In this document: piece after piece, positions 23,982 through 59,150 of the stretch
How the letters are laid out: every line of letters starts with the position of its first letter
How positions within the stretch are numbered: the stretch's first letter is position 1
Source: a virus
Lineage: Duplodnaviria > Heunggongvirae > Uroviricota > Caudoviricetes
IMG/VR virus record: IMGVR_UViG_3300028859_000015
DNA: 64,000 nt
Direction: 5' to 3' (one strand)
Translations under genes and position numbers: made by a program
The notes under the pieces: model-generated
What the model saw: the letters and a program-made list of their open reading frames with translations, nothing else
The model's database searches: none
Told to the model about the DNA's origin: nothing

Positions 23982-24236
23982 TTATACCTCAACTATAGCT
24001 AAGGATTCTGTATCAACCTTATGAAAGATACAAATAGTTTCTGAGAGTCTATATCTATAACAAGCTGCGTTATCTGACTCTTCTAATCTCTCTATAGCCT
24101 GTTTCTCATTATGTGCTTTATATATATGATGGTTACTGTGTCCATATATTGTTAACTCATATTCAGTATATAACGACACATTATTCTCTACTTCATATAA
24201 AAATTCTCCAGTTTCTATAACTAATATACTATACAT
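23982..24236 (-). CDS. HIPTG/EFEIIEI family member (MYRIL-like)
   Basis: MYSILVIETGEFLY ... LAIVEV. Confidence 0.55.
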   Translation of the reverse strand: MYSILVIETGEFLYEVENNVSLYTEYELTIYGHSNHHIYKAHNEKQAIERLEESDNAACYRYRLSETICIFHKVDTESLAIVEV

Positions 24237-24834
24237 TATTATAATTCATAATATTTATTAAAATATCATCCAATTTAACTGGTTTAAAGTTATTGGCATC
24301 TACTCCAACATCGTACATTCTCTCTCTTTTCATTGTAATCTTAGAATGTTGGTGGCCATGTAATAAATACTGTCCAAAATCTTTAATATGATACTGTCTA
24401 TATTTTTCATCAAATGGTAAAATAATGTTATCCTCAAAAGGAAAATGGCTTAACTGTATTTTAGAAATATCATATGTAGGAAATGGTATTTCATTATCCA
24501 TTAAAACTTGAACCAAAGAAATATTTTCAGAATAAACCTTTAAAAATCCAGCCTCTAAATATTTTTGTGTCCATAAAGGCTGATAAAATGGTTTATCATG
24601 ATTTCCTACAATCAGAAAATGACTACCATTTAACTGCTTAACCATTTTAAGACTTTCATCTACTTTTCCCATACAAATATCACCTAAATGTATACAAGAA
24701 TCTGTATCTTTAACTAAGATATTAAAATTATTAATTATAGTCTCATTCATTTCTTCCTTACTTAGAAAAGGCCTATTTGCTAGAGCCAATATATTTTTAT
24801 GATTTAAATGCTCATCAGATGTGAAATAAATCAC
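24229..24834 (-). CDS. calcineurin-like metallophosphoesterase
   Basis: SDEHLNH, GDICMG, GNHD motifs. Confidence 0.75.
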   Translation of the reverse strand: MIYFTSDEHLNHKNILALANRPFLSKEEMNETIINNFNILVKDTDSCIHLGDICMGKVDESLKMVKQLNGSHFLIVGNHDKPFYQPLWTQKYLEAGFLKVYSENISLVQVLMDNEIPFPTYDISKIQLSHFPFEDNIILPFDEKYRQYHIKDFGQYLLHGHQHSKITMKRERMYDVGVDANNFKPVKLDDILINIMNYNNV

Positions 24835-25219: not shown

Positions 25220-26551
25220 TTAAATATCAATTACTGATTGCTCATCTTCAATATTAGTATTACCTTTGTCTGCTTCTTCTGTTTCAGCCTTCATTCTAAA
25301 TCTAAAATTCTTAAGTTTGTAAGACCTACGTTCAAATAGATTATCTACAGAAAGCACTATTCCTTCTTCTGGAACTTTATTATTACAATAAGGACAGTCA
25401 GCATCCAACATAAAAGTGCTTGTAAGCAACCCTAGAAAATTTTCATGCCAGTGTTGACTTACTGGAATTTGAGGGAAATAATCTTTTGCTTTACCATAAT
25501 AAAAAGTATTAGGCATTTCAAATCCATAAGTCTTACAAAAATCAGTAATTTGTGACCACGAAAACTCAATTACTTTACCATCATAATTTGTAGAAGTAAT
25601 TCTATACACTAGAAGTTTATATGTTTTAGGAGCACAGCCATAATCAAAGGCTACTCCCTTGGCTTCTTGAATAGCTCTACCAGAAGGAAGAAAGCCAACA
25701 CACTCTCCATATAGTGTAATGCCTTTAGGAATTAGGTGTTTAATAGACTCAGCAATTTCTCCCCATAAATCCATTCCATAAAAATGACTTGGGTTAGCAT
25801 TTATAAATGAATTTTTTACAACTTTTCTACTGCTATAAATGATACCATAGTTTAACTCATCTCCAATTCCAAGCCAGGACGTTATTTTTTGTTTCCATTT
25901 AGGTATAATTTTCTTAAATAAGACATTACCAACAGCCCAAGAAGTTCCATGATACTTAGATGAAATGCTAATAATGTCATCTGGATTGATATTATCAATC
26001 TCTTTGGCTAGCATTCCAGTATCATTCATTAGTCGATATTGATTTTCAACTACTCTATTTACTTTTACTGACTTCTTATTTTTCTTTTTACCACTATCAG
26101 ATTGCCCTGTATTTTCTTTTCCTTGGATAATGTATTTTTCGCAAACTATCTTACCATCAATAATATTAAAGTCATCTCCAATATTAAAAGTAAAGTCTCC
26201 TAGATAGTTTAAAGAATCAAGAGTAATGAAAAAACCAGATGACTTAAATTTACCATTAATCATTTTACAACATTTAACTCTTCCACTAATTTCAAAAAAT
26301 CCACTTTTAGTAGTATCTTTATTAAGAGTCTTATCTTTATACAAATTATTATTAGATAGAAAATCTTTACTCAATTTAGTTTCAATTGGAAAAAACAATC
26401 CAATATCATTTACTTTAGTATTCTTTCCAACAATGACGGAATTACCAAAAATAATAGCATGTTGAATAGTTTTAGCACCTTCTAATTCTATAAGAGTATT
26501 AATCCTTACTACACTAGCACAATAATTTTTATCTTTAACTTCCAGCTTCAT
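25220..26551 (-). CDS. Rnl2-type RNA ligase (covalent nucleotidyltransferase superfamily)
   Basis: Motif I SKYHGTS (KxHGT as in T4 Rnl2). Motif IV-like EGIVLS. Motif V-like KLK. 443 aa. Confidence 0.6.
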   Translation of the reverse strand: MKLEVKDKNYCASVVRINTLIELEGAKTIQHAIIFGNSVIVGKNTKVNDIGLFFPIETKLSKDFLSNNNLYKDKTLNKDTTKSGFFEISGRVKCCKMINGKFKSSGFFITLDSLNYLGDFTFNIGDDFNIIDGKIVCEKYIIQGKENTGQSDSGKKKNKKSVKVNRVVENQYRLMNDTGMLAKEIDNINPDDIISISSKYHGTSWAVGNVLFKKIIPKWKQKITSWLGIGDELNYGIIYSSRKVVKNSFINANPSHFYGMDLWGEIAESIKHLIPKGITLYGECVGFLPSGRAIQEAKGVAFDYGCAPKTYKLLVYRITSTNYDGKVIEFSWSQITDFCKTYGFEMPNTFYYGKAKDYFPQIPVSQHWHENFLGLLTSTFMLDADCPYCNNKVPEEGIVLSVDNLFERRSYKLKNFRFRMKAETEEADKGNTNIEDEQSVIDI

Positions 26552-27590: not shown

Positions 27591-29378
27591 TTATTTAGAT
27601 AAAACTGTATTAAAATCCTCTACTTGAGCAATAATTGACAAGAAATCTCTCACGTCAGGAGTCTTTTTATTAGCCTTATGTGCGAGCGCCGTTACAAGTC
27701 GAATACAGTTCTTAATCTGACGACCATTAAGATTAGCTGAGGCTACCTTGTCAATATTTTTAGAGCTTAATGTAATGTTATAAAGCTTTAGATGATTGGT
27801 CCAAATCTGTTTACGTGCCTCGTCAGAAAGATCTGGATATTTGATAGCAAGACTAATACGAGAATAAAAAGCACTATCAATGTTAGTTACCCGGTTGGTA
27901 GTTAAAAATAGAATTCCATTATAATACTCTAACAAACGTAAAAATACTCCAACAAGAGCATTACGCTCAATATTCAAATCACGCTTCTCAATAAAAATAT
28001 CAACTTCGTCAATAAGAAGAACAGCATTCCAAGAAGAAGCAATCTCAAGAATATTTCGAAGATTACTATCCAAAGTTTTTACATTTGTACCAAGCTCACC
28101 AACAGAAACCATATAAAGGGGTCTGTGAAGTGTTTCGGAAATCGCTTCGGCCGTAAGAGTTTTACCATTTCCTGGTTTTCCATGAAGTAGGAAAATACAC
28201 CCACCGCCTTTGTTATCAACAATGTCTTTACTTTCACCACTATATTCAGCAAGTGAGAACATAGTATCTTTAGTTTCTTGGTTTAGTACCAACTTACTAT
28301 AAGCATCAGTTCTAAATGAAATATCAGAAATAGAATCGATTTTAAATTCTCCCCATTGCTTGGCAACTAACGAAAAACCATAACAATAAGGAGACATTAC
28401 TAGATATTGACTTTCTGTAATATTCTCTTCTGAGATTCTTTCTTTGAATCTCTTATTTCCATTTCTATCTATATTACCATTGCCACCAAAGTATTTATCA
28501 TAATTTGGATCAGAACGCATCATTCCAGACCTATCAAGAACAACTCTTCCTGTGGAGTTGAATAGAGAGTTCTTATACCAATTTCTACGAACCATACTAC
28601 CTGTATATTGTCCGTAAAAAGAAGTATTTTGATGAAGTTTAAAACACTTCCTGCCTCTTTCAATAAGTTTATTACGTTCTTCCGGATAATCATCTAACTT
28701 AGTTATACCAATTTCAGATAGCATCTTATCTCTAGAATAGAAACCAACTGCTGTAGAATATTCACCAGATGAAAATTCTATTCCATTATGAATAATAATA
28801 GAACCTGAAATATTTAAATAGGTTCCAAAGAAAGACGTAATAATAGATGCCTCTTTAAGAATAAAGCCAACCGTTACTCCATCCTCAGAAAAGGCATATT
28901 CCTCTCCCTTTTTAAGAACGTAAGGAAGACTTTGAAATGGAACTTTAGTGTCCTTATTAGCTCCAGCGTATATAATTGCTAACTCTGCCTCATACTTTTT
29001 AATTGCCTTAATAAAATTAGACCACTCTGGTTTATTGACCACATTATTAAGCCATTGATTTTCAGTACCGTCATTAATTAAATCAAAAATAGAGTATCTA
29101 CAACTAATAAGCTTAATATCCTTACTCTTATCAGCATCATCAATTATATGTGAAGTGATAATAAGATTGGAATCATACTCCATCATAGTTTGCTTAATAA
29201 AATTAGAATTGATTTGTATACGGGCTTTAAAAATATCCTGGTCACTAATGACAACAAAGGCCTCTGTCTTAGGTGCTTTTGTAGTAGTTTTTGTAGCTTT
29301 TTTAGAGATTAGTTTACCAATCAAAATATTCTCCTCATTTATATTTCCTGAAGCTTTGTTTTTAGAAGTAGTCGTCAT
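27591..29378 (-). CDS. classic-clade AAA+ ATPase with ~370-aa N-terminal domain of unknown function
   Basis: Walker A HGKPGNGKT, Walker B LLIDEVD, SRH-like TTNRVTNIDSAFYSR. 595 aa. Confidence 0.7.
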   Translation of the reverse strand: MTTTSKNKASGNINEENILIGKLISKKATKTTTKAPKTEAFVVISDQDIFKARIQINSNFIKQTMMEYDSNLIITSHIIDDADKSKDIKLISCRYSIFDLINDGTENQWLNNVVNKPEWSNFIKAIKKYEAELAIIYAGANKDTKVPFQSLPYVLKKGEEYAFSEDGVTVGFILKEASIITSFFGTYLNISGSIIIHNGIEFSSGEYSTAVGFYSRDKMLSEIGITKLDDYPEERNKLIERGRKCFKLHQNTSFYGQYTGSMVRRNWYKNSLFNSTGRVVLDRSGMMRSDPNYDKYFGGNGNIDRNGNKRFKERISEENITESQYLVMSPYCYGFSLVAKQWGEFKIDSISDISFRTDAYSKLVLNQETKDTMFSLAEYSGESKDIVDNKGGGCIFLLHGKPGNGKTLTAEAISETLHRPLYMVSVGELGTNVKTLDSNLRNILEIASSWNAVLLIDEVDIFIEKRDLNIERNALVGVFLRLLEYYNGILFLTTNRVTNIDSAFYSRISLAIKYPDLSDEARKQIWTNHLKLYNITLSSKNIDKVASANLNGRQIKNCIRLVTALAHKANKKTPDVRDFLSIIAQVEDFNTVLSK

Positions 29379-30926: not shown

Positions 30927-31225
30927 AAATAGTAGACTAAATAAGAAATGGATGGGATGTAGCGAATTGAACGCTATCTAAAACCTTCAAAGGGTCCTGT
31001 GCTACCGTAACACCTCATCCCAATAACTCTATTATCGTCCAATTTTTATTTTTCTTTATAGATAATATCCAATACCAAGCATAAAAATATCAGCATCTTT
31101 ATTGTTATCTGTTATTACTCTATCAAATAAGGCCTTTGTTGATTAGTTTTACCATAAGAAAAATCAATATCTTGAGAATATAATGATAAACAAGACATAA
31201 CTAATACTAAACTCATAGATTTCAT

Positions 31226-33307: not shown

Positions 33308-34104
33308 TGTATTGCTCCTCAGTGGATTTGAGAGTTTGCGATAGACTATTACGAAATGTAATAGCTACCAAGTATTAATAAATAAATATATTAATAAAAT
33401 ATATTATACTGTCTGAACTGACCAATAATTAAAAGAATCCCCAAAAGAAGGACGAACAATTACAAACGTAAGGACCTCATCAAGAGGCTGTGTGGAAAGC
33501 AAAATAGCCTTTTTATACTCTTTCGTAGAAGGCATCTTACCCTTCTCAAACTTCTGAGAAACCCATTCACCATTATTCTGTTCAAGCTGCCATTCAAAAA
33601 GCATCTTTATCTCCTTATACCAGTGGAAGTTTGATGGACCAATAAAATACAAACTTATGATAATTTCTAACATAAACTAAGGTAGCAAATGACCAGCCAC
33701 TTTTACCGTCTTTTTCAGTTTTTTGAATCAGAGCAAAATACCAACCCAAAACGTTTCTATAAAACTCTAAGAAACTTAATTTATTAAGTTGTTTAATTAT
33801 TTCCAAGAGTCTTTTCACGCTGTCTCCCTGAAACCCTCTTCTTCTTTTCTACTACCTTAACTTCTGTAGTTTCCTCAGAAAAGGCCGGAATAACAACTTC
33901 CTTTACCTGCTTAATATTTCGTGCCTCAAGCTTCCAACACTTCTTAGAACAAAACGACCATCCCTTATTATTTACTAGGTCTTCTGCGTTTTCATTACTT
34001 ACACGCTTAATTTCATTGTCTTTTGATACACATTTCATATCTCTAGTCTCCTCATATGGGCTAATTATAAAAATTACAGTCTATTCCTGGGAGAATATTA
34101 TACC

Positions 34105-34608
34105 TTATTTTTTATTAGTGATAATAGAATAAATAGTCTTGCCTTCCATGTTTGGAGAAGCTTCCACATTATAATTATTAAACATAGACATTACCCTAGA
34201 AAGCATGGCAAATCCTACATCTCTATGGGCAAGTTCTCTCCCCTTTAAAGGAATACTAATCTTAACCTTATTACCATCAGCAAGAAACGATAGAATGTGT
34301 CTTACTTTCACACCCAAATCATTGTCTGCTATATTAAGCTTAATTTTAATTTCCTTAAGAACCTCTACTTTTTGATTTTTTTTAGCCAGCTTTTCTTTTT
34401 GGATAAGAGAGAACCTATAACTATCATACTTCATAATCTTACAAGTAGGAACAGTTGGGGAAGCAGAAACCTCAATCAAATCAAGGTCTTTACTCTCAGC
34501 CAATTTAATGGCGTCTGAAGTAGCCATTTTACCTAAAAACTTATTAGTATTATCTACTACATTAACTGTAAGGGCCTTAATTCCATCATTGATTACGATT
34601 TCAATCAA
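34105..34608 (-). CDS. infC: translation initiation factor IF-3
   Basis: Collinear similarity to bacterial IF-3 over both domains: LDLIEVSASPTVPTCKIMKYDSY vs [23 protein letters not shown], and QKVEVLKEIKIK...GNKVKISIPLKGRELAHRDVGFAMLSRV vs QKVIQVKEIKFR...[28 protein letters not shown]. Confidence 0.85.
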   Translation of the reverse strand: MIEIVINDGIKALTVNVVDNTNKFLGKMATSDAIKLAESKDLDLIEVSASPTVPTCKIMKYDSYRFSLIQKEKLAKKNQKVEVLKEIKIKLNIADNDLGVKVRHILSFLADGNKVKISIPLKGRELAHRDVGFAMLSRVMSMFNNYNVEASPNMEGKTIYSIITNKK

Positions 34609-34897
34609 GTGACTATATCTCCAGATAGGGTTATGAGCTAATTACTTTAATTTTATATTTTTTAATTATTTCTTGATGAAGTATTAAATAATCATCTATG
34701 AATAGTTTTGGAACTCTATCTCCTACTAATTCTTCTTTTGTCTTAGGGTCAGTCCATGAAATTTTGCCAAACTCACATGTAGAATAATCAAGCGTTACAA
34801 AACTCATTCAAATTCTCCTTTAAAATAAAAAATCTGGCGGAATTAGGCCAATCCGTTAGGCTTTTCCGGCAAGAGAAAGCACCAGTAGTTATTACTT

Positions 34898-36076
34898 CTA
34901 CTTACTTGTAATAACCTCAATCTCTACCCTACGATTAATTGCAGACTCTTTTGAGGTCTTTCCAACTGATTTAATATTTTTAGAAGGAATTCCAGCATTA
35001 ATAAGAGCATCTGAAATTACTTTTGCTCGTTGATTACTGAGCCGTTCATTAAATGAGGGAGTTCCAACTACCGATGTAAAACCAGAAATATTTAGTAGAT
35101 AATCATTACGATTTTTAAGGTCATTAACTAAATGACTAATTACAGCTTGACCTTCTGAAGAAATAATTGCCTTACCATTATCAAAATGAATTACCACTTC
35201 GTCCAAAGTGATTTTAACATTATGTGAAACAGGTTCTTCAGTAATAACTACTGGTGCTACTGGAGGAGCAACTACAACTGGGAATGTAGTAGCTACAGGA
35301 ACAATTACTTTAGGCTGATTAATTTCTTTAAGAGCAAGAACAACCATTCCTTCAGTATAGACAGGCTTAGCTGTGGCATGATTAAAACCAGTGCCACCAG
35401 AAGAAGCTTGTGATTGGTTCATCTGATTGCCATTAATACCGCCAGCAACATAACCAAGACCTAACCCAAAACCAGTACTTGAAGTTGCCTGACCAGTTAC
35501 TTTTTTCATTAGAAAAATAGAATCAGCACCTGTATCAAGAGCTTCAAGGACAGCTTTACCAATTACATCAACTGTGGTTGCCTTTTTATTTCCCTGAAGA
35601 AAAATAAAAGCCCTTCGTTCGAACTTACTATCGTCTGGAACCAAAGTATCCTTACCATCAGAACCGGTAATCTTTTTCAAAGGAAGCTGAGTAAGAAGCT
35701 TACACTCTTTAAACTGAATAGAACCATCAGCCATTCTATTTATACGTGCCGAAACTCCTCCATTATACATCAACTTAGCCTGTTCAAGACTAATGACCTC
35801 AGGAAGGAGACGCAAATCATCGATAATGTTACTGCCCGTATTCCAGGGCCCAAGATAAGGGAGCACAGGAGCCTGATAGGGTTGTACTGCATTAGTAAAA
35901 AGTCTTCCAGTAGTTGGATCTGAAGAAGCAAAATTCTGAGTTAGAACAGCAGCCGCATTGTTATTGGCGCTTGATGTTGTACTTGTTCCTAAAACTGGAG
36001 TAGCAATCACAGAGTTAGACTGTGCCGACAAGGTTACTGCTACAAGCGTAAGAGCAAGAAATGGGATAATTTTCAT
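34898..36076 (-). CDS. secreted OmpA-C-like (peptidoglycan-binding) domain protein
   Basis: Signal peptide MKIIPFLALTLVAVTLSAQS. C-terminal NISGFTSVVGTPSFNERLSNQRAKVISDALINAGIPSKNI...NRRVEIEV matches the OmpA/MotB C-terminal domain. Confidence 0.7.
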   Translation of the reverse strand: MKIIPFLALTLVAVTLSAQSNSVIATPVLGTSTTSSANNNAAAVLTQNFASSDPTTGRLFTNAVQPYQAPVLPYLGPWNTGSNIIDDLRLLPEVISLEQAKLMYNGGVSARINRMADGSIQFKECKLLTQLPLKKITGSDGKDTLVPDDSKFERRAFIFLQGNKKATTVDVIGKAVLEALDTGADSIFLMKKVTGQATSSTGFGLGLGYVAGGINGNQMNQSQASSGGTGFNHATAKPVYTEGMVVLALKEINQPKVIVPVATTFPVVVAPPVAPVVITEEPVSHNVKITLDEVVIHFDNGKAIISSEGQAVISHLVNDLKNRNDYLLNISGFTSVVGTPSFNERLSNQRAKVISDALINAGIPSKNIKSVGKTSKESAINRRVEIEVITSK

Positions 36077-36087: not shown

Positions 36088-36819
36088 TTACTTAGAAACT
36101 ACTGGGCAAGCTGAGGAAGTCACAGAAGCCGAAGAAGCTGCAGAATATCCATTTCCAAGATTAGATACCTGTGAATAGCCGGTTTGAATAGTATAACCAT
36201 TTCCTGACCATGTTCCATTTGAGCCATTTCCAGAGGTTCCAGAAACTGAGAAACTAAAACCACCAGTAGTAGAGCTAGAGGCAAAAGCACCATTTGTTGG
36301 GGAAAGTCCAATACCATTAGCATTTGTAATAGTGGTAAAATTACCAATAAGTGCAGAAGTTCCTGTAGATAGACTACCATAACCAATAAGAGAGAAACTA
36401 TCAGAGCCACACGGACTATTAGTTAGAGATACAGACCCTGCTCCTGAAGTAGAACCATTGGTCCAAGAACCTACAGTATTTGTTCCTTGAATAAGAGAGC
36501 CATTAACTACAGTGTTACCTATAGTGTAACCTGAACCACTTCCTGATTCATCTACAGGACAATTAGAGGGTGAGGACATTGAAGAAGAGAAGCCAATATA
36601 GCCTGTCTGCGAGCCACCTGCACCAAACGAGGATGAATAAACATTAGAAAGAGACAACCCAGTTCCAAGAGTAGTTGGAAGATTATAATTAATAGTTCCC
36701 TGTGTTGCTACACCATTAGTCTGTGTAGCAGTCCCATAAAAACTAGTAGCCTCCTGTGCCACCATAGGAGCAACAGAAGAGATAACAAGAGCAGCAAAAA
36801 GAGAAGTAAACTTATTCAT
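36088..36819 (-). CDS. secreted Ser/Gly/Thr-rich low-complexity protein
   Basis: Signal peptide MNKFTSLFAALVISSVAPMVAQEA. More than 50% S/G/T/N. Confidence 0.55.
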   Translation of the reverse strand: MNKFTSLFAALVISSVAPMVAQEATSFYGTATQTNGVATQGTINYNLPTTLGTGLSLSNVYSSSFGAGGSQTGYIGFSSSMSSPSNCPVDESGSGSGYTIGNTVVNGSLIQGTNTVGSWTNGSTSGAGSVSLTNSPCGSDSFSLIGYGSLSTGTSALIGNFTTITNANGIGLSPTNGAFASSSTTGGFSFSVSGTSGNGSNGTWSGNGYTIQTGYSQVSNLGNGYSAASSASVTSSACPVVSK

Positions 36820-37477
36820 GGTATTTCTCCGTAAAAGGCCAATAATTAGGCCATATTTGAGCTGAATTGATCAAATTAGTTATTAATTACTTCCCTAATT
36901 TCAGAAGTATGGGTATATTTATTACTATTAGGCCAAAAAATAACCAAAATAGAGCCTACAGCAGATTCAGTAATAATGTCTGAGCTTGAGGCAGGACCCA
37001 TAAAAAGCGGAATATACTTTGCAGACTGAAGAACGATTTCGGAATACTGTTTATACTCACCATCATTACCTTGATTATAGGTAGGTTCTTTAGTTCCAAT
37101 TAATCGTCTCACTTGTTTATTTTCTACATCAAGTTCGTACATAGAATTTTGAGTTTTAATTAGAGTGGTCATTTTTGTTCCTCCAAGAAAAATAGCAGTC
37201 TTCTTGACTGCTATTATTAACTTAAAAACTACTACAACTACTTACAAACGAGCCTACACTCTACCACTGAATTAGACAGCCTTTGTTTAGCAATCATTTG
37301 CGCTATTAATGCTTCTTCCTCTTCTGGTGTCATCAAATCCCAATTTAGCAAGAGTTCTCCTATGGATTAACTAAAAATGGTAGCCCTAGTAGGTGCTGCC
37401 CCTACGACTTCCGACTTATAAGGTCGGCACTCTACTGTTGAGTTACAGGGCCTTCTAATCAAATTATCGGCTATTTC

Positions 37478-43455: not shown

Positions 43456-43540
43456 TGGTGCTTCCGACGAGCCACGACCTCGTAATCCTTTTCAGGCGCG
43501 GGTTTTTAAGACCCGAGTGTATACATTCCACCACGGAAGC
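43456..43540 (-). tRNA. candidate class-II tRNA-Leu(UAA) with encoded CCA
   Basis: Hand fold of the minus strand: 7-bp acceptor GCTTCCG/CGGAAGC. U8, A14. 3-bp D stem. Anticodon arm CGGGT-CTTAAAA-ACCCG (U33, anticodon UAA, A37). 15-nt variable arm with CCT-GAAA-AGG. T arm ACGAG-GTCGTGG-CTCGT. Discriminator A73, then CCA. D- and T-loops are non-canonical. GC-rich island in AT-rich DNA. Confidence 0.45.
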
Positions 43541-49493: not shown

Positions 49494-49742
49494 TTACTTA
49501 TTAGACTTGCTGTCTTTCATGCCATCATCAAATCCACGGCACCAGAACCTATATTCCCTGGTATCTGGAGCATAAGGACATTCTCTGACTTTGGTCTTTC
49601 GATATGTCTTGCCAGAGACATATCCAGACTTTGCTGCTTCAATGATGGACGGCTTTTGGTTCTTGAGCTGTTGTGGAATAAGACCAACAGCATCAATAGT
49701 GATACCAGATTTTGCAAGGGCCTGACCAAGAGCAGTGGACAT
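49494..49742 (-). CDS. hypothetical protein, homolog of 57998..58291 (SIIEAA-SGY...TREY-FWC-GFD family)
   Basis: Shares SIIEAAKSGYVSGKTYRKTKVR..PY..TREYRFWCRGFDDG with the 58-kb copy. GC about 43% vs about 27% background. Confidence 0.55.
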   Translation of the reverse strand: MSTALGQALAKSGITIDAVGLIPQQLKNQKPSIIEAAKSGYVSGKTYRKTKVRECPYAPDTREYRFWCRGFDDGMKDSKSNK

Positions 49743-49902
49743 AAGTCCTCCTTAAAGAGAAAAGTTATAGGTTATTAGCTTTAGGGACTAATTATGAGAA
49801 TTGAATTAAATAACTCAGTCACTCTATCTGAGCAATAGAATCAATTCACCCACCACTTATTTAGTGTCTATAGAGTTTATGGGAAATTAATTATTTTTAT
49901 CT

Positions 49903-50139
49903 TTAATTATGTTGATTAAATATTTGATTCCATACCTGCTTATTTACTTGATTCTCTACTTGATCCCATACTTTATGGTGTAATTCATTAGCTACTTGAT
50001 TCCATACTTGCCTAAGTATTTGATTACTTATTTGAGTCTTTATTTGGTTACTTGCTTGATTATAAACTCTATTCCTTACTTGACTACATACTTGATTCCC
50101 TACTTTATTATCTACTTGACTCCTTACTGATTTAAGCAT
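49903..50139 (-). CDS. MLKSV-(xNQV)n tandem-repeat small protein
   Basis: SD AAGGGGA. Start ATGCTTAAATCAGTAAG. Body is 12-nt repeats N-Q-V-x. Confidence 0.55.
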   Translation of the reverse strand: MLKSVRSQVDNKVGNQVCSQVRNRVYNQASNQIKTQISNQILRQVWNQVANELHHKVWDQVENQVNKQVWNQIFNQHN

Positions 50140-50218
50140 TATTTATCCCCTTCATTGGTTTGTTAGTACTTGATGGAATAGCTATAAAAGCTACTCCACT
50201 AAATACTAAAATCAAATA

Positions 50219-50557
50219 TTAATCAGCAACGTTCCTCGTATAACCCTGAACATATTCCTTCTGAATATAGGATTCAAAGGTCTTACCAGCAGGAAGATTG
50301 AAATGGCCATGTTCTTCATGAGTGAGTTCGGCAGGAGCTTCATCCACATGAAGATAAATCTTACCTTCCAGCTCGTAGGCAGAAATACCAGGAATGGCCT
50401 CAACAGCATGATGATGGCCAGTCACTTCTCCATCAGCAAGAATATATCGGCCATTCACGGCTTCCAGCTTCTTGGCATTTGTTGGAATTGAAGAAACTTC
50501 CTCAACAAATACATCACCCTGACGAGCCTGCTTGTCAAACTTCTTGTTAGTCTTCAT
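50219..50557 (-). CDS. hypothetical protein (GC-rich cargo)
   Basis: 112-aa ORF. GC about 42%. Confidence 0.5.
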   Translation of the reverse strand: MKTNKKFDKQARQGDVFVEEVSSIPTNAKKLEAVNGRYILADGEVTGHHHAVEAIPGISAYELEGKIYLHVDEAPAELTHEEHGHFNLPAGKTFESYIQKEYVQGYTRNVAD

Positions 50558-50770
50558 TGATTTCTCCTCCAGAGAAAGGTTTTGTTGCTTTATTAATTTT
50601 TGACTTTATAGTTATAGCTTTGTGTAACTCTGTAATATCTAATAGACTTGATACTTCTATGTTAATATCATTACTAACTTTTTTCCATACTATATAATTT
50701 ACATTATTAAAGACACATCCACTTACTTGGGCTGTTACTTTACTTAACATCTCCCTTTTAACAGAATTAA

Positions 50771-50977
50771 TCATGTTTTTAAATCCTCAGTAATTATTTC
50801 TATTCTTATTTGCTCTCCTATTCCTATGAATGCTGTACTATCTATTTGATTACTTACTTGACTACTTACTTTCTTATTTATTTGGTTACTTGCTTGATTA
50901 AACACTTGATTAAACACTTGATTAAACACTTGACAGAATATTTGATTTCTTACTTGGGGCTTTATTGATTTGAGCAT
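50771..50977 (-). CDS. MLKSI-(xNQV)n tandem-repeat small protein
   Basis: Internal Met MLKSIKPQVRNQIF of track ORF 50771..51085. Directly follows the stop of the 328-aa gene. Confidence 0.5.
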   Translation of the reverse strand: MLKSIKPQVRNQIFCQVFNQVFNQVFNQASNQINKKVSSQVSNQIDSTAFIGIGEQIRIEIITEDLKT

Positions 50978-50981
50978 TTTA

Positions 50982-51968
50982 CTAGGTCTCAATGCTCGGA
51001 TTGTATTTAGCACCAGTCTTACCAAAGGTCGAAGCAACCGCATTTTTTGCGGTAAATTTTTGAGCTGCTCCAAAGGTTCCATCAAGCTTCATAGGACGAA
51101 GCTGGGGGTGAACACGAAGGAAGTAAGTCTTGTACATATGTTCTTTCCAATAATCCAGGTCTTTCTGATATTCAGCACGAGTCATATATTTCTTAATATC
51201 CCACTTTGGCTTAGGTTCAGGAGTGGAATTAAGCACTTCCACCATCATAATGTCTTCATCACCGTCAATTTTCTTACGCCAAAGAGTCCCAAAGGAATCA
51301 CTATGAATCTTTTCAGCATTGGTTCCCTTGAGATATTCAGCAACTCCAAACAAATCAATCATAATTCTTCGAACTTCCGCATTGGTTTCTTTTTCAATGC
51401 GGTCAACGGTAATGGAAGACCTGTCAAGAATAATATCTTCTGGAACACTGATACCATGAAAGAAGTACAAAAAATAACCATCACGATACTTAACAGCTGG
51501 GCCAGAAGTATTGTGAAGCCTATTTTCAGGGTCACGATGAAGCTCTGAAGGCCTGTCTTGGAGAACGGCAAGAGTTTCGTAGGCGCTCCACCAGCAACAA
51601 TTCTTCGCAAATTCAACAAGAAGATTAAACCCATTAGTAAAACCAGTGACCCCAACAACTTCCTGCATGTACTCATAGAAAGAAAGCCAAGAAGCCTCTT
51701 GATTACCGAAAGACATGTCAAAGAAAATGGAACTCTCTGACATAGAACTATCAATATTCTTAATAATAGAAATAGCTTCCTTCGGGGAACGTGCATAGAG
51801 GATGGTGTCGGGGGCCTTCAATCCAGTTTCTTCGTACAATTTTACTGCGCTTTTCTTTGCCTCCTCAAAATTGATAGGGTCTGTCGAAAGACCAATCTTC
51901 TGCCACTTATCGACAAATTCCGGAAATCTTGCTTCCTGTTCCTTGGTCAAGCTAGCGATTTTAGCCAT
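50982..51968 (-). CDS. hypothetical protein (328 aa, GC-rich cargo)
   Basis: Long ORF. GC about 40%. Confidence 0.55.
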   Translation of the reverse strand: MAKIASLTKEQEARFPEFVDKWQKIGLSTDPINFEEAKKSAVKLYEETGLKAPDTILYARSPKEAISIIKNIDSSMSESSIFFDMSFGNQEASWLSFYEYMQEVVGVTGFTNGFNLLVEFAKNCCWWSAYETLAVLQDRPSELHRDPENRLHNTSGPAVKYRDGYFLYFFHGISVPEDIILDRSSITVDRIEKETNAEVRRIMIDLFGVAEYLKGTNAEKIHSDSFGTLWRKKIDGDEDIMMVEVLNSTPEPKPKWDIKKYMTRAEYQKDLDYWKEHMYKTYFLRVHPQLRPMKLDGTFGAAQKFTAKNAVASTFGKTGAKYNPSIET

Positions 51969-51981
51969 TGTAGTTCTCCAG

Positions 51982-52218
51982 TTAGTGGGTTAGGTTATTT
52001 GATAGACTATTAAACAAAGCTCTTCTTGTGAGTTCTATTTGATTATCTACTTGATTCTTTATTTGATTATATACTTGATTATTTACTTGATTCCATACTT
52101 GAATATTTGTTTGCTTATATACTTGATTCTTTACTTGATTATCTACTTGATTCTTTATTTGATTATATACTTGATTATTTACTTGATTCCATACTTGGGG
52201 CTTTATTGATTTAAACAT
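51982..52218 (-). CDS. MFKSI-(xNQV)n tandem-repeat small protein
   Basis: SD AGGGGAA. 12-nt repeat body. Confidence 0.55.
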   Translation of the reverse strand: MFKSIKPQVWNQVNNQVYNQIKNQVDNQVKNQVYKQTNIQVWNQVNNQVYNQIKNQVDNQIELTRRALFNSLSNNLTH

Positions 52219-52220
52219 TA

Positions 52221-52331
52221 TTCATTCCCCTATTTGATTATATACTTGATTCCATACTTGATTCCTTACTTGATTATATACTCGTCTCAATACTTGTTCA
52301 CATACTTGACTCTTTACTAATTTAAGCATTT
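52221..52331 (-). CDS. short MLKLV-(xNQV)n repeat protein (36 aa)
   Basis: ATGCTTAAATTAGTAAAG start. Its stop TGA overlaps the SD of the next repeat gene. Confidence 0.4.
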
Positions 52332-52547
52332 TATTCAACACATTTGAATAGGAAATTTTTATCACTATTAGTCATATTAGGATGAAATTGTTTAGTCATA
52401 TTCCAGGCATGGTCTAAAATACTTGTTAACTCAAGGTCAGTATATTTTGCTTTACAATATTTGACAGATTTTTCAAAGTCTGGAAGATAAACATCCATCC
52501 TGAAAGAGTTATTAGACATGTGAGTCTCCTGTAGAGAGTGTTGAGGT

Positions 52548-52802
52548 TTATTCCCAAGGACAATCTATGCCTCTAACATAATTGAAAGGGTCTACCTCAA
52601 CTGATTTTCCATCTTTTACAGCAAATACAGTATTACATTTTTCACAAGTATATGGAGAATGCCTATTAACATTTACAAGAACTGATTTAGGAGCTTTTTT
52701 AAGTGAAAAAGTATCCAAATTACAGTTACCACTCTTACTCTGAAAATCTTCCCTGTGGCCACATTTAGGACAAGGTACTTTTACAGTATCATACATTCCC
52801 AT
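52548..52802 (-). CDS. zinc-ribbon protein
   Basis: CPKCGH...CEKCN. Confidence 0.45.
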   Translation of the reverse strand: MGMYDTVKVPCPKCGHREDFQSKSGNCNLDTFSLKKAPKSVLVNVNRHSPYTCEKCNTVFAVKDGKSVEVDPFNYVRGIDCPWE

Positions 52803-52965
52803 AGAGTTTCTCCTTGAGGCAATAAAAGTGAAGGTTATTCAGGCGATACCTTCAAACGCTTATCGAGGGCACCAGTAGTTTTTTTAAGAGAAACTACAAA
52901 CTCCTGGAGAAGATGCTGGTAGACTCAGGCACTACCCATATCTATCCTCATAGCATCTAAATAGT

Positions 52966-53018
52966 AGTGCTAGTAGATTCAGAATAGTTTTTCTATTCCT
53001 ATCTATCTTAATAGCACT
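52966..53018. ncRNA. structured repeat element, copy B
   Basis: Outer stem agtgcta/tagcact: three base pairs changed relative to copy A, all compensatory. Inner stem gaatag-ttttt-ctattc. Same conserved core. Confidence 0.5.
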
Positions 53019-53031
53019 CTATCAAATCAGC

Positions 53032-53211
53032 TTAATCCAAGAGCTGTTTCAAGAGTTTAACAAATAAAAATCCCACGGCAATACCAACAATAAAAAGCCA
53101 ATAATTATGAATTACAACACTAGGGAACTGTTTATACATTACATCATTCCAACCAAGCATAAGAATATAAAGAAGAAACATACCAAGAATAATGGAAATA
53201 ATTTGTTTCAT
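53032..53211 (-). CDS. 59-aa membrane protein
   Basis: MKQIISIILGMFLLYILMLGW... Not in the ORF track. Confidence 0.4.
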   Translation of the reverse strand: MKQIISIILGMFLLYILMLGWNDVMYKQFPSVVIHNYWLFIVGIAVGFLFVKLLKQLLD

Positions 53212-54236
53212 ATTGACTAATCTCCTTGTGGGGGCTATTAAATTATCGTCTTCATCTGGATTAAAGAAAGACCTACAATCAAAATTAAAATAAAATTTTC
53301 TTTCTTCTAACTCTGCTTCATAACTAGCAAGTTCTTCCTGGGCATCTAATTTTTCATTATAATATAGTTCATCAAGGGCTTTTTAATTTCTTTCTTTGAA
53401 GAAAGAAGTTTAGCCCTCACCTAAAAATCTTTATGAAATTGAATGCTGGTATTAAGGAGATTTTTCATACCTCTCCAAAAACCACGTTCCTTGAAATGGC
53501 AAATCCAATCATTGAGCTTATAATTATATGACCCGCAGCCACACTTAAAATAGAGTTTCATTGTAGTTCTCCTATGTTTCTATTTCTCGTTCCCATTTAA
53601 GCTGGGCCCTATGAGAGTTATAGACAACTTGTTCACAACCTATTCTAATATCCATATTGTTAACTTCATAACAACTAATAACAAAGTTAAAATCTTTAAA
53701 AAACCATAAATGTTTTTTAAACCATTTATTAAAACATGGCATATTTTTAAATCCAAATTTGAAATAATCTCTAAAATCCTCCCCCAAGCCATCATCTCTG
53801 GGAGTAGTCATATCCCCAAGCTCTGAATAAACCCCTGAATCACATAAGGCAGAATAAAAAATTTCATTTCTAAACCTATAGTTAAAAGGACCTTCACGAG
53901 TAATTTTATGTTCAAGTCTAAAAATTTCCATGTAGTCCTCCTAGGTTAGTGAATCAAATTAAGGGTTAGGTAATAAATACCTAACCACTAATCAGATTGG
54001 TGGGACTTGGAACTTTAAATTATATACTAGTATTTATTTTTCGCTGTATTTATAAGTAAGAATAGCTACAGGACTAATTTCCGTCTCACCTTCAAGAATT
54101 GGATGACCTTCAAAAACCATCCAACAATTACCTGAATAAATAGGCAGTTTAAGAACCTTGCTCAAATCATTTGTAATCACACGCTGCATTTTAGTTACCT
54201 TAACGTCACTATAAATAAGGGTATAGGGCTTCATTT

Positions 54237-54365
54237 TCAGTCCTTTCTTGTTATTCCGTTAAGTATTGATTGATTATATACTTGACTATATACTTGATTC
54301 CCTACTTGATTCCATACTTGAATACTTACTTGATTCCTTACTTGACTCCTTACTGATTTAAGCAT
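54237..54365 (-). CDS. short MLKSV-(xNQV)n repeat protein
   Basis: Same conserved start. Stop 3 nt before the next gene start. Confidence 0.4.
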   Translation of the reverse strand: MLKSVRSQVRNQVSIQVWNQVGNQVYSQVYNQSILNGITRKD

Positions 54366-54562
54366 TATTTATTCTCCTTTATTTGATTGTATACTTGATT
54401 CCATATTTGATTTAGTACTTTTTCTAATATTTGAAGATATACTTGATTCTTTATTTGATTATCTACTTGACTATATACTTGATTCCCTACTTGATTATCT
54501 ACTTGATTCCCTACTTGATTCCATACTTGAATACTTACTTGACTCTTTACTGATTTAAGCAT
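54365..54562 (-). CDS. MLKSV-(xNQV)n tandem-repeat small protein
   Basis: SD AAGGAGA. 65 aa. Confidence 0.55.
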   Translation of the reverse strand: MLKSVKSQVSIQVWNQVGNQVDNQVGNQVYSQVDNQIKNQVYLQILEKVLNQIWNQVYNQIKENK

Positions 54563-54565
54563 TAT

Positions 54566-54763
54566 TTATTCTCCTTTCAAGAGATAAGATTGTTCTTGAT
54601 TCCATATTTGATTTGGTACTTTTTCTAATATTTGAAGATATACTTGATTATTTACTTTACTCTCTACTTGATTACTTACTTGATTCCATATTTGACTCGT
54701 TACTTTGTCCTTTATTTGATGTCCCACTCTACTTCTTACTATAATAGTCTCTGATTTAAGCAT
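54566..54763 (-). CDS. MLKSE-(xNQV)n tandem-repeat small protein
   Basis: SD AGGAGA. 65 aa. Confidence 0.55.
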   Translation of the reverse strand: MLKSETIIVRSRVGHQIKDKVTSQIWNQVSNQVESKVNNQVYLQILEKVPNQIWNQEQSYLLKGE

Positions 54764-54779
54764 TACTTATCCCCATTCT

Positions 54780-56342
54780 TTATGGGACAATAGGCAAGCT
54801 GTCTGCTTCATTGACACTTGGAAATACAAATTGCCCATACCCTGTTCTATGGCCTTGTTTAAGATATCTAAAATTATATGGTTGAGTCAAAGGTCTGCTA
54901 CTATTATACATACCCAGAGTAGCACAATTAGTTTCAGCAATCTCTTTAATGATTCTATATGATTCAAGAAAATTAACTTTCATATCTTCAGCACACCAAT
55001 GATTACAAATTAAAACAGGCCTACCCACTGTTCGTCTTGCTGGCCCTGACACTCTCATATTCTGAAGAGAACTATTTAATGGGAAGAATTTTTTAGTATA
55101 GTGAACTTGAATAATAATTTCAAATTGATTTTCTTTGTCAGAATAATCAGTAAAGCTAACACCACGACTAGCCATAAAGCCAGCGATGATAATAACTTTA
55201 CGAAATCCCAAATCTTTTTGTTGTTTAATTAAATCAGCTAAAGTCTCTTCTGAACTTTCTTTGGTTTCTGAATTCATTACAAATAATCCAACTTTATTAC
55301 TTGCTCCCAATTCATTAAGATGTCTTTTAATTACCTCAGCCATTCCAAATTGTTGAATTTTACGATTTTCAAGACTAATTAAACAAAGTTGTACAATATC
55401 AGACCCCTCTTCCTGTTTGTTAGCTGCCTTTACAAACTGTTCAGTAGCAAAACTAACAGCTGGATAGAAACTATTATATGCTTGGTCCATATAATCACCA
55501 GTCCAACGATTACGAGCCTTACATCTATTTTCAACAATACGACCATCTAATACTATATTAGCAGGATGGTCAATACCAATACCGACATAATTTTGATAAG
55601 GTTGTTTATAAAGAACTAACCAATCATCCTTTTCTGCTGTAAGAATAGCAGCAGGAGTAGCAGAAACAAAGATAGTTCTACTATTAGATCTAGATTTAAC
55701 CATATTTTTAATTTGAAGAAGAAGCATAGTCACTGGAGGAAGGGAACTACCATCAGCTACTGGCTCTTCATCTAAAGTGTCTTCGTCATCAGATTCTATA
55801 TTTTTTTTCTTACTTTGCTTTCTTTCATTAGCCTCAATTGTATTTCTGGATTTGTCCGCCTCGTCAATTACTACAGTCACTGGTAAATCTTCCAGCATAT
55901 CTAGGATATCTTCTAGTTGTTTTAGATTATTAATTTCCATAAGCAAATGAATAATACGTTTTTTACCTACTGATTCTTTTAGAAACTTACCAAGTCTAAT
56001 ATCATCACGATAATTGACAATCTCAAAGCCAAGACTACGGGCTCTACTATTAGTCTGTGATGCTAGGCAGGTATTCTTATCACTAATAAAAACAATGGCA
56101 GATTCTTTATAGAAATGGCTAACTGTTTTAAGAACATCACTAGTTTTGCCACTTTGTACTGATTTGAATAAAATAATGCTGGTATAAGACTTATGCTCAA
56201 TTAAAACATCTTTAACTTCCGTACTGTTGGAGAGCATTAGGAATTTACCCATTGTATTTCTCCTATTTGGCAGCAAACTTCCACATGCCATTGTTGTTAA
56301 CTTCAGGTTTAGTATTGCTTGATGGATATGTAATAAATACAT
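54780..56342 (-). CDS. SF2 DEAD/DEAH-type helicase-like ATPase
   Basis: Motif I VQSGKTS, motif II VVIDEADKS, motif III FVSATPA. The track ORF starts at GTG 56348; the first ATG is at 56342. Confidence 0.55.
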   Translation of the reverse strand: MYLLHIHQAILNLKLTTMACGSLLPNRRNTMGKFLMLSNSTEVKDVLIEHKSYTSIILFKSVQSGKTSDVLKTVSHFYKESAIVFISDKNTCLASQTNSRARSLGFEIVNYRDDIRLGKFLKESVGKKRIIHLLMEINNLKQLEDILDMLEDLPVTVVIDEADKSRNTIEANERKQSKKKNIESDDEDTLDEEPVADGSSLPPVTMLLLQIKNMVKSRSNSRTIFVSATPAAILTAEKDDWLVLYKQPYQNYVGIGIDHPANIVLDGRIVENRCKARNRWTGDYMDQAYNSFYPAVSFATEQFVKAANKQEEGSDIVQLCLISLENRKIQQFGMAEVIKRHLNELGASNKVGLFVMNSETKESSEETLADLIKQQKDLGFRKVIIIAGFMASRGVSFTDYSDKENQFEIIIQVHYTKKFFPLNSSLQNMRVSGPARRTVGRPVLICNHWCAEDMKVNFLESYRIIKEIAETNCATLGMYNSSRPLTQPYNFRYLKQGHRTGYGQFVFPSVNEADSLPIVP

Positions 56343-56360
56343 ATCCACTAAACAATAATT

Positions 56361-56600
56361 CTAGTTAGCTATTTTATTACTTACTTGATTATATACTCGT
56401 CTCAATACTTGTTCACATACTTGAATTCTTACTTGAATTCTTACTTGAATTCTTACTTGATTACTTACTTGATTCCATGCTTGATTAAATACTTGATTAA
56501 ATACTTGATTAAATACTTGATTAAATACTTGATTAAATACTTGATTCGTTACTTGGGTATATATTTGGTTATCTACTTGATTCCTTACCGATTTAAGCAT
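56361..56600 (-). CDS. MLKSV-(xNQV)n tandem-repeat small protein
   Basis: Five consecutive FNQV units. 12-nt repeats. Confidence 0.55.
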   Translation of the reverse strand: MLKSVRNQVDNQIYTQVTNQVFNQVFNQVFNQVFNQVFNQAWNQVSNQVRIQVRIQVRIQVCEQVLRRVYNQVSNKIAN

Positions 56601-57589
56601 TGTCTATAGCCTTGATGCTAGTCCACCATGCTAGACATTCTTCAACTTTATCATAAGCCAATGGACAAGTTAGATTGTATTCGCATTGGCCACATATCTT
56701 TTCAGCCAATTCATTATGTTCGTTAGTTGTTTGTTCTTTATTGTCACTCATATAATCTCCTTGTTTTGAGTTTGTTCTTAGTTAACTAGGGGATGTCCTT
56801 TATTCAGAGTTCCTAGTTGAATAAAAACAAATACTGGCCCAGGATAGTATGTTCCCAGGCCAGTATATTTTACTATTGTTCTATAATCTCTAGGTTTAGT
56901 CTCAACGTTGTGGTAGTTTTTATAAGTTGGCTTAACTACCAAACCATGGCATATATCTAACCCTGCATGTACCACCTCACAATTCCCTATATTACCCAGG
57001 CGATTAGGTAATATAGCTCAAGAAGATTGGAGTTGTATTCTTGGGGGATTTAGATATGCGGAAAATCCCCAACAACCGCTTAATTAACATGACATTGTTC
57101 ATCTTTTCTCCTATTGGTGTGGGTGCCATTTTCGATAACAGCATTCCACAATTGCTCTAGCTCTTTCAAGCTAGGACAGTTAGAAGGAGACTCATGTTTA
57201 GACACAGGCTTGTATCCATAAACAAGAGTCAGTAAGAAAAAGTTGAGGGTTTATACGATACCCACAAACGTTTATTCCCCAGTCGCTTCACAGGTTTCCC
57301 TCCACATACTGGGGTACTTCTACTATGTGAGAGTTTGAGGCTATATAGTCCACCACTATGTAGACTATTAGTAGGATACTACTGGAATATAAACAACTCC
57401 CAGCAATATGCAGCTCACAACCAGACGTGAGGGTTATTCGATACCAAACTGACCCCCTAAAAATCAATTTAATACAGCCAAGCGTATTAAACTTGGCTGA
57501 ATAAACTGATTGTATTTATTTGAGCTGTAATAGGCCTAGGAGACCTACTTGCCGTTCTTCATCTTACCGTGTGCCTTGATCTTTCCGGC

Positions 57590-57691
57590 CTTACTTTGCC
57601 CGGTCCTGGTCTTGTTCAGGCGGTCGGAAACGGTGAGTTTGTTCTTGTTCACCTTGTCGAACTTCTCAACCTTGACTTTGGCTTTGGCCAT
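57590..57691 (-). CDS. small Lys-rich basic protein (about 35 aa; a +1 shift at a C4 run would extend it to about 50 aa)
   Basis: SD AAGGAG. MAKAKVKVEKFDKVNKNKLTVSDRLNKTRTGAK*. The other frame continues QSKAGKIKAHGKMKNGK. GC-rich islet. Confidence 0.35.
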
Positions 57692-57748
57692 GATTACTTC
57701 TCCTTTTTGTTGTGTTGTTTCTTGTATATAGAGGGAGGATGTTGAGGT

Positions 57749-57889
57749 TTATTCGAAATGAACGGTATAACGGGTATCCTTGTGAGAGATGCCCTTGTTC
57801 ATGCGCTTCTGTTTGTTGTTCTGGAGACGCTTGTACTGCTTTCGTGAACCTGCCTTATCCAGAGTGAGGAACTTCTCAGTGGTTGACAT
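57749..57889 (-). CDS. 46-aa basic protein
   Basis: SD AAGGAGAG. MSTTEKFLTLDKAGSRKQYKRLQNNKQKRMNKGISHKDTRYTVHFE. Confidence 0.4.
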   Translation of the reverse strand: MSTTEKFLTLDKAGSRKQYKRLQNNKQKRMNKGISHKDTRYTVHFE

Positions 57890-57997
57890 GTTTCTCTCCT
57901 TGTTAATAAATACCAGGAACTATTCCTGATAATATAAGATTATCTTGATGATAGTCTAGGAGTTAGCCAGACCACCACTAAAACAACTGATTATTTA

Positions 57998-58291: not shown

Positions 58292-58366
58292 GACGTTCTC
58301 CTATCTTTCTTGTGTTGTTGGAAATAAGTCTTAATCACTATGACTAAGACCAGTAAAAAGCCGGTA

Positions 58367-58660: not shown

Positions 58661-58792
58661 TGTATGATTCCTCCTATAGATAAAGAAACTGTTGTTGACA
58701 AATATGAGAGGGAGGTGTTAATGAGATACTAACATTTAACACTCAATCTCACATTTAGCAAAAACAGTAATAAATTATGGCATATATCTACC

Positions 58793-58984: not shown

Positions 58985-59150
58985 TATTTATCCCCTTTGT
59001 TAGTTAATGAATTGTTTTAAGAATATCCTGTGCCATATTGATATTACTAGGAGGGGCAGGGTATTATTAAAGCAACTAATATAAATATACTATGGGCGAG
59101 AATCACAGTTCTATCAACTATCCTACACAAACACTCCATCTAATCTAGCC

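Follow-up and report, generated by a model that had tools for sequence, protein, structure and literature searches.

A full-length bacterial-type IF-3 with a conserved C-domain and a diverged N-domain in a probable large bacteriophage

The IF-3 gene and its immediate surroundings

The DNA considered here is a 64,000-nucleotide stretch of the IMG/VR virus record IMGVR_UViG_3300028859_000015 (Caudoviricetes), called the window below, in which a gene on the minus strand at 34105..34608 encodes translation initiation factor IF-3. The original prediction, made from the sequence alone, held the product to be a bacterial-type IF-3 with both of its domains, carried in a phage-like accessory region. 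By every sequence and structure criterion that we applied, the product is a full-length, two-domain bacterial-type IF-3, and the searches with hidden Markov models that the prediction had proposed bear out both domains. The open reading frame (ORF) has 167 codons in the ORF listing and runs from a TTG start (34606-34608) to a TAA stop (34105-34107). Its product matches the TIGR00168 infC equivalog at 148 bits against a cutoff of 60, with residues 5-167 lying on model positions 6-169 of 170. The N-terminal domain, IF3_N (PF05198, 64.4 bits, cutoff 26.9), covers residues 6-73 (34390..34593, minus strand), and the 30S-binding C-terminal domain, IF3_C (PF00707, 84.1 bits, cutoff 34.8), covers residues 84-165 (34114..34359, minus strand). 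The phage family profile PHROG 9787 matches residues 2-167 over its positions 2-168 of 168 (138.7 bits, E = 3.4e-40). In phmmer comparisons, the PDB IF-3s 5me0_Y (Geobacillus, E = 1e-28), 5lmn_X (Thermus), and 8jsg_A (Escherichia coli) align collinearly and almost without gaps, and the window protein falls in the same length class, with 167 residues against 171-180.

An AlphaFold2 model of the protein, made with 34 homologs, has a mean predicted local distance difference test score (pLDDT) of 87. The modelled N-domain has the order beta-beta-alpha-beta-beta at a pLDDT of about 90 or more, a high-confidence and normal IF3_N fold, and the modelled C-domain has the order beta-alpha-beta-alpha-beta-beta. 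A Lys-rich interdomain linker helix was assigned by DSSP on the model at residues 61-78 (34375..34428, minus strand); the linker sequence, YRFSLIQKEKLAKKNQKV, is predicted to be helical and corresponds to the flexible, Lys-rich linker of about 20 residues characteristic of IF-3, and the predicted template modelling score of 0.52 is compatible with a flexible arrangement of the two domains. The best Foldseek matches of the model in the PDB are all IF-3s, full length or as single domains, on the 30S subunit. Taken in isolation, the domains superpose on their PDB counterparts at 1.3-2.1 A, IF3_N on 1tif and 6o6d at 1.3-1.9 A and IF3_C on 1tig, 2m71, and 6vrj at 1.6-2.1 A (1.7 A for 1tig). Two domains, a helical Lys-rich linker, a conserved C-domain, and the predicted fold are thus features that the window protein has in common with the bacterial IF-3s of known structure.

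A Shine-Dalgarno (SD) sequence, GGAG, can be read at 34619..34622 on the minus strand, 10 nt upstream of the TTG start. No in-frame ATG comes before codon 28, which already lies within the N-domain, and a protein starting there would lose the first strands of that domain. The arrangement of SD and TTG is kept in two orthologs with 81% and 64% protein identity, even though synonymous sites are near saturation over these distances. This conserved TTG is atypical for the phage, because, of 140 gene calls on this phage DNA, only 4 use it (133 begin with ATG and 3 with GTG). In E. coli, infC typically starts with AUU, a codon that IF-3 itself discriminates against, and UUG belongs to the canonical class of start codons. 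The window gene has a TTG in place of the AUU, AUA, or AUC start of the canonical infC locus, and, UUG being in the canonical class, this is just a weak start that does not imply the classical autoregulation of infC. Non-ATG starts are frequent among phage IF-3 genes, with GTG in the phages Atu_ph07 and Phosso and TTG in Vibrio phage 2.275.O.

Directly upstream is a 58-aa ORFan at 34631..34807 on the minus strand, taken from the ORF listing and without a Pfam family. An unrelated small ORF had been predicted at this place, and it is there, with 58 residues and slightly wider ends in place of the 57 residues and the approximate span 34636-34806 first given. It is probably co-transcribed with the IF-3 gene. 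A counterpart with 89% identity exists in the 81% relative and none beside the 64% ortholog, and the ORFan is not a conserved partner of IF-3. Downstream, in the place that rpmI takes in the bacterial operon, lies an 81-aa ORFan (33793..34038, minus strand) that is unrelated to L35 and conserved in the 81% relative only. A conserved module of three genes (58-aa ORF, IF-3, and 81-aa ORF) was considered and rejected, as both neighbours are missing beside the 64% ortholog. That ortholog adjoins a DUF2201 gene, which in the window is 33 kb from IF-3; its neighbourhood is rearranged, and the IF-3 gene is therefore one that is retained while its surroundings change, with no fixed partner gene.

A terminator-like hairpin with a T-run at 34834..34851 (minus strand), lying between an OmpA-domain gene and the 58-aa ORF, is a possible boundary of the transcription unit, although the evidence is weak, the consensus scan having found 1 site where 0.7 were expected. 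Two genes stand directly upstream of this unit, at 34898-36076 and 36088-36819, both on the minus strand. The product of one has a signal peptide and, at its C-terminus, an OmpA domain; that of the other is a 243-aa Ser/Thr/Gly-rich secreted protein without a family. Both are envelope-directed phage proteins, and their presence suggests that the host is diderm.

Relatives, domain conservation, and selection

The window IF-3 has a small family of its own, with members at 99, 86, 81, and 64% identity. An exhaustive HMMER search of 1.84 billion cluster representatives found only its own cluster to be close, the 8,629 others (E <= 1e-3) being 33-46% identical. The best matches among 185,579 species-representative genomes were 33-42% identical and spanned unrelated phyla (Alphaproteobacteria, Planctomycetota, Bacillota, Methylomirabilis), and none of these genomes contained a locus related to that of the window. 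Other phage IF-3s are no closer to it than the bacterial ones, with 95 matching phage records at 28-41% identity. Searching IMG/VR with the family alignment gave 21 contigs with IF-3 relatives at 32-44% identity, and scanning it with the single protein as query gave no confirmed relative. A recent capture from a host, which the original prediction had proposed to examine by phylogeny, is rejected by these results, as the HMMER search, a word-indexed search, and the species-genome scan return nothing above about 46% identity outside the protein's own clade. Across these collections, the window IF-3 has no near relative in any cell, cellular IF-3s being only 33-46% identical to it, and no donor lineage could be named.

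Phage-encoded IF-3 is already established, with a PHROG family of its own (9787), and the window protein is a further member. IF-3 has been described across huge phages (PMC7162821), and GAP32 is among the phages in which a phage IF-3 was first annotated. The members of PHROG 9787 include those of Cronobacter phage GAP32, Salmonella phages PHA46 and Munch, Pectobacterium phage CBB, Agrobacterium phage Atu_ph07, Sinorhizobium phage Phosso, Vibrio phage 2.275.O, and the huge phages LR756501 and LR756511. As in the window, the IF-3 genes of these phages stand alone, at a distance from genes for ribosomal proteins and in the company of tRNAs and other genes related to translation. The gene adjoins Clp protease, ClpS-like, or ClpX-like genes in GAP32/PHA46, Atu_ph07, Phosso, and Vibrio 2.275.O, and in the last of these it adjoins the gene for ribosomal protein S21 too; the window IF-3, unlike these, is not adjacent to Clp-type genes. 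Beside this recurrent IF-3/Clp neighbourhood in jumbo phages, we note that an AAA-type ATPase of 595 aa (27591-29378, minus strand), which matches phrog_29662 ('ATP-dependent protease'), is encoded 4.7 kb downstream of the window IF-3.

The two domains of the window protein differ sharply in how far they have moved from the bacterial consensus. We aligned the window family with 155 IF-3s of bacterial type, namely the top representatives together with the three from the PDB, scored columns that were at least 70% conserved, and compared the fraction kept in each domain with that in 144 full-length bacterial-type IF-3s. In the C-domain, 18 of 20 conserved columns are identical, which equals the comparator mean, and the two altered columns are conservative (F130L and R131K, in E. 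coli numbering here and below). The positions kept include K94, E95, D106, K110, G132, R133, E134, and H137, so that the proposed check of residues contacting the 30S subunit turned out in favour of a conserved C-domain. The N-domain keeps 13 of 25 conserved columns, below every comparator (n=144; mean 0.89, minimum 0.68), and the difference in retention between the domains is significant at p = 0.009 (Fisher's exact test). The 12 near-universal N-domain positions at which it departs from bacterial IF-3 include R25N and Q33F, and the changes also include G31N, P62V, D69K, G71D, and K72S. Some substitutions recur between the window protein and other phage IF-3s (K79Q, G71D/N, P62V/I, and I27V). 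The IF-3s of GAP32, PHA46, and the Vibrio phage, however, have diverged in both domains, with 10-11 of the 20 C-domain columns kept, whereas that of the window has diverged in the N-domain only.

Among the altered N-domain positions are those of a functional contact described in E. coli, where R25, Q33, and R66 of IF3 touch the elbow of the initiator tRNA (Singh et al. 2022, PMC9723500). In that work, the R25A mutant or the triple mutant R25A/Q33A/R66A showed about 5-fold more initiation at AUU, discriminated less against an initiator tRNA with a mutated 3GC stem, and had impaired growth; eviction of the C-domain from the 30S subunit was impaired in the elbow-contact mutants, and the C-domain alone supported E. 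coli growth and carried most IF-3 functions (PMC9723500). In the window IF-3, R25 has become N16, Q33 has become F24, and R66 has become K57, the last a conservative change, and the stretch that holds these residues aligns without gaps in all three PDB comparisons. Across 145 bacterial-type sequences, the R25 column holds Arg in 121 and Asn in 1. The elbow-contact residues are hence not those of E. coli, which is a matter of function and not of formal membership in the family. The window protein is altered at the same positions as the two E. coli mutants and has both domains intact; its changes differ from the Ala mutants in being natural, to Asn and Phe, with R66 replaced by Lys, and in being fixed and selected in a phage lineage.

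Selection was estimated by the Nei-Gojobori method for the window IF-3 against the 81% and 64% orthologs. The ratio of nonsynonymous to synonymous substitution rates (dN/dS) is 0.12 in the comparison with the 81% ortholog and 0.14 in that with the 64% one, the overall range being 0.12-0.20, and the synonymous distances are 1-2, near saturation. By these estimates, the gene is under purifying selection. Between the window protein and the 81% ortholog, the N-domain is 87% identical with an omega of 0.11, the interdomain linker is 100% identical, and the C-domain, at 73% identity and an omega of 0.17, is less conserved than the N-domain. The derived N-domain is thus not decaying but strongly conserved in its derived state.

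The carrier of the gene and its possible role in infection

The placement of the gene in a phage-like region, of accessory or early type, is upheld by gene content and by synteny with viral contigs in IMG/VR. The G+C content of the window is 27-38%, the GC skew is negative throughout, and almost all coding is on the minus strand in small genes; for contigs that are identical to it or nearly so, public annotation lists about 140 genes in about 62 kb, mostly of 40-100 aa and without a Pfam family. Recoding of stop codons was considered and rejected, as reassigning TAG, TGA, or TAA yields no coherent long ORFs and there are simply many small genes. The genes recognised with PHROG and Pfam include, on the minus strand, an RNA ligase (phrog_968, 25220-26551), a phosphoesterase (phrog_547, 24229-24834), an AAA_5 ATPase of the MoxR/CobS-like type (5388-6674), and a DUF2201 protein of the CobT/VWA-like type that runs off the window start (1-1228). 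An HNH endonuclease is encoded on the plus strand (6790-7581), opposite to all of its neighbours. Thymidylate synthase, dCMP deaminase, NUDIX, HSP20, a member of the T4 Y00F family, and an SPFH lipoprotein of phrog_200 are recognisable too, and the set is typical of large virulent phages. The best phage matches of the RNA ligase are in Synechococcus jumbo phages (B3/B23) and Lak megaphages.

The AAA_5 ATPase has IMG/VR relatives with 79% and 71% identity on IMGVR_UViG_3300031251_000400 (35.9 kb) and IMGVR_UViG_3300044712_000568 (230,154 bp), and the first 14.5 kb of the window (1-14.5 kb) are syntenic with both contigs over eight genes at 33-79% aa identity. The 230,154-bp contig also encodes a clamp loader and a ClpP-type protease, and the portion of it that was read showed no IF-3. 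An identical IF-3 protein occurs in at least 54 assemblies, the longest carrying contig being ENA ERZ27248620 k141_255180 with 113.9 kb (a JGI contig of 90.9 kb is another candidate for the replicon), and a megablast of the 20 kb around the IF-3 gene against 50,697 phage records gave no match. The carrier appears to be a large, virulent-type bacteriophage, probably of jumbo size, for which a genome of at least 200 kb is the threshold.

The window gene stands outside the infC-rpmI-rplT operon of bacteria, and the absence of these partners, noticed in the original prediction, held up in every search. Pfam gave no match of any kind in the ten ORFs neighbouring IF-3, no Ribosomal_L35p or L20 occurs among the precomputed Pfam matches of the surrounding called genes, and tblastn for L35 and L20 found nothing in the window and its flanks, with the positive control locus matched as it should be. 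The translation proteins L35, L20, and S21 were not found in the window, and ribosomal proteins, thrS, and other core bacterial genes are missing from the window and about 10 kb of flanking sequence, which is the opposite of the flanking core genes that were to have made the find an ordinary chromosomal one. In contrast, the nearest bacterial match (P0006, 41% identity) lies in a textbook infC-rpmI-rplT locus (L016) adjoining dnaE.

Three tRNA genes are found on the minus strand of the window, and tRNAs are the only RNA families matched in the Rfam scan. These are tRNA-Gln(UUG) at 30949..31022 (ARAGORN; Rfam 47.5 bits), tRNA-Leu(UAA) at 43456..43540 (ARAGORN), and, 2.8 kb upstream of IF-3, tRNA-Ile(UAU) at 37381..37452 (Rfam RF00005, 50.8 bits), which ARAGORN missed. 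The anticodon loop of the last, CUUAUAA, gives UAU as read from the sequence, and its elbow is atypical, with a T-loop GGCAGCA that is without the usual UUC and a D-loop AACAGUA without GG. We considered this tRNA-Ile as a phage initiator tRNA and rejected it for its UAU anticodon, its G1-U72 pair, and the absence of a 3-GC stem. In Sinorhizobium phage Phosso, a tRNA-Ile(tat) likewise lies near IF-3, some 500 nt downstream. All three window tRNAs carry U34 and decode A-ending codons, and the set fits a compensation of codon usage in a phage genome of about 30% G+C. The phosphoesterase (24229-24834) and RNA ligase (25220-26551) genes, both on the minus strand, lie close together, and their products could be a tRNA-repair pair against host anticodon nucleases.

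We consider it reasonably likely that the gene encodes a functional phage IF-3 that binds the 30S subunit of the host and does the job of IF-3 during infection, a reading made up of parts shown above and parts deduced from them. The C-domain would bind the platform of the host 30S subunit during infection, as its conserved 30S-binding positions suggest, and the bound phage IF-3 would keep the subunits apart and would promote and check 30S initiation complexes. The phage would thereby control or sustain initiation independently of the host IF-3. With the elbow contacts replaced (N16 and F24), proofreading of tRNA and start codon may be coupled differently from that of the host, most simply by being less stringent; that proofreading really is altered through the two lost contacts in the sub-lineage of the window seems to us doubtful. 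Our hypothesis would have the phage IF-3 re-tune host initiation, as the original prediction had suggested, and is consistent with proposals for huge and jumbo phages, in which IF3 has been proposed to redirect translation (PMC7162821, PMC7824862, PMC11895373).

The view that large phages "intercept" host translation is commonly supported by pointing to the translation factors that they encode, and the window IF-3 makes a sharp test case, since its ribosome-binding domain looks fully competent and two residues that set fidelity in E. coli have been replaced, with selection maintaining the replacement. In its furthest form, which we think unlikely, the idea is that of a naturally 'elbow-contact-less' IF-3, by which the phage would equip host ribosomes with a proofreading factor that is relaxed or has a new specificity. 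If this were true, the gain for the phage could be a preference for its own mRNAs, tolerance of an initiator tRNA altered by the phage or by stress, or escape from a host defence directed at initiation, and the protein would be the first viral initiation factor whose sequence predicts a specific change in start-site fidelity. Otherwise, the window IF-3 would add one more case to a phenomenon already known, in a new phage lineage that is environmentally widespread, with an identical protein in those 54 or more assemblies.

Several points weigh against a phage factor of altered specificity, or limit how far such a reading can be taken. The comparators for the N-domain are top-scoring metagenomic representatives that may derive from cells or from phages, and the case for 30S binding by the window IF-3 comes entirely from conservation of residues. 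R25N is limited to the window sub-lineage, and loss of the elbow contact does not appear to be a general phage strategy, because Arg stands at this position in the 64% ortholog and in each of seven further phage IF-3s that were compared. Nor is there any sign of a need for relaxed fidelity in the phage genes, 95% of which begin with ATG as called, and SD-preceded AUU, AUA, AUC, and CUG starts occur at background level only. The OmpA-domain neighbour, tried as a pointer to the host, has no relative in the reference genomes. Finally, no virion hallmark gene (capsid, terminase, or tail) was found with PHROG and Pfam in the window and about 10 kb of flanks, scans of some 50 further ORFs included. 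The assignment to a phage therefore draws on gene content and IMG/VR synteny, evidence that is strong but indirect. The same missing virion genes, together with several larger proteins that are ORFans, would suit an ordinary infC gene on the chromosome of some low-GC bacterium not yet in culture, or on a plasmid or other non-viral element, an explanation that we hold to be highly improbable. The window has none of the rpmI, rplT, thrS, and other core genes that a chromosomal locus such as the control would bring, no related locus exists in the 185,579 species genomes, and no plasmid replication or conjugation genes were seen; gene density and sizes, HNH endonucleases, the T4 Y00F gene, the PHROG matches, and the synteny with the 230-kb IMG/VR contig point to a phage.

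If the carrier is a phage, its IF-3 could still be a plain supplement or back-up, with an activity identical to that of the host, which raises or maintains the IF-3 pool without a change in specificity when the host's gene expression has been stopped or its IF-3 runs low in the course of a lengthy jumbo-phage infection. We regard this as rather less likely. It agrees with the near-invariant C-domain positions that are kept and the ability of the C-domain alone to carry most IF-3 functions (PMC9723500), with the ordinary ATG starts and SD sequences of the phage and the R25 of other phage IF-3s, and with the nearby tRNAs for A-ending codons, which fit a general boost of translational capacity. 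An extra copy would not, however, be expected to have an N-domain further from the consensus than any of the 144 comparators, R25 and Q33 included, and yet under strong selection. An intact 30S-binding domain joined to an altered N-domain is also what a competitive inhibitor or decoy might look like, one that fills the IF-3 site on the host 30S subunit and is defective in productive initiation, so as to shut down host translation or to block an IF-3-dependent host defence, and the E. coli elbow-contact mutants are indeed poor in C-domain eviction from the 30S subunit and in growth (PMC9723500). A general inhibitor would hit phage translation too, though, and we found no feature that exempts phage mRNAs; the linker and the N-domain fold are wholly preserved, and a weak, conserved TTG argues for low-level expression and not for stoichiometric flooding, all of which makes a decoy very unlikely. 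The many substitutions at otherwise conserved N-domain positions might, on their own, be read as the decay of a passenger gene that was once taken from a host and has lost its function. That reading can practically be set aside, as the frame is intact in at least 54 assemblies, the SD and start codon are conserved, the fold is confidently predicted, and the selection analysis effectively refutes it, with a dN/dS of 0.12-0.20 and an N-domain that is 87% identical where synonymous sites are near saturation. A functional phage IF-3 acting on the host 30S subunit thus remains our preferred reading of the gene.

Small-gene arrays, repeats, and other features of the window

The window also holds several paralogous families of 65-90-aa ORFans in head-to-tail arrays, often with overlaps of a few bases, at 1252-5084, 23982-24236, and 49494-63126 on the minus strand. 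One family has 7 members at 49.9-59.0 kb, another has 5 at 3009-4010 and 23982-24236, and a third has 4 at 1409-5084, and the arrays run on beyond the window start. About 4 kb of them lie between the AAA_5 ATPase and DUF2201 genes. These arrays look like lineage-specific insertions or expansions, because the two genes are far closer together in the IMG/VR relatives.

Tandem repeats of 12 nt, TACTTGATTAAA, occur at 56382-56583 (about 17 copies) and 58826-58964 (about 12 copies), inside two ORFs of the 7-member family. They could encode a repeat of four residues in the protein or else, if the stretch is poor in genes, be iterons without a coding role. A perfect direct repeat of 59 nt at 59161-59281 (2.1 copies, 100% match), with GTGTTAACTT sub-repeats, lies in an intergenic gap adjoining a 243-aa ORFan (59715-60446) and could be an origin or a regulatory element.

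An 802-aa ORFan at 8166-10574 on the minus strand has no match in Pfam, PHROG, or the phage records, tblastn included, yet two viral contigs of IMG/VR have a counterpart with 33-42% identity at the corresponding place. In one related assembly (L009), the slot of the HNH endonuclease (6790-7581) is taken up by a pair of shorter ORFs (120 and 125 aa), as expected of a mobile or decaying homing endonuclease.

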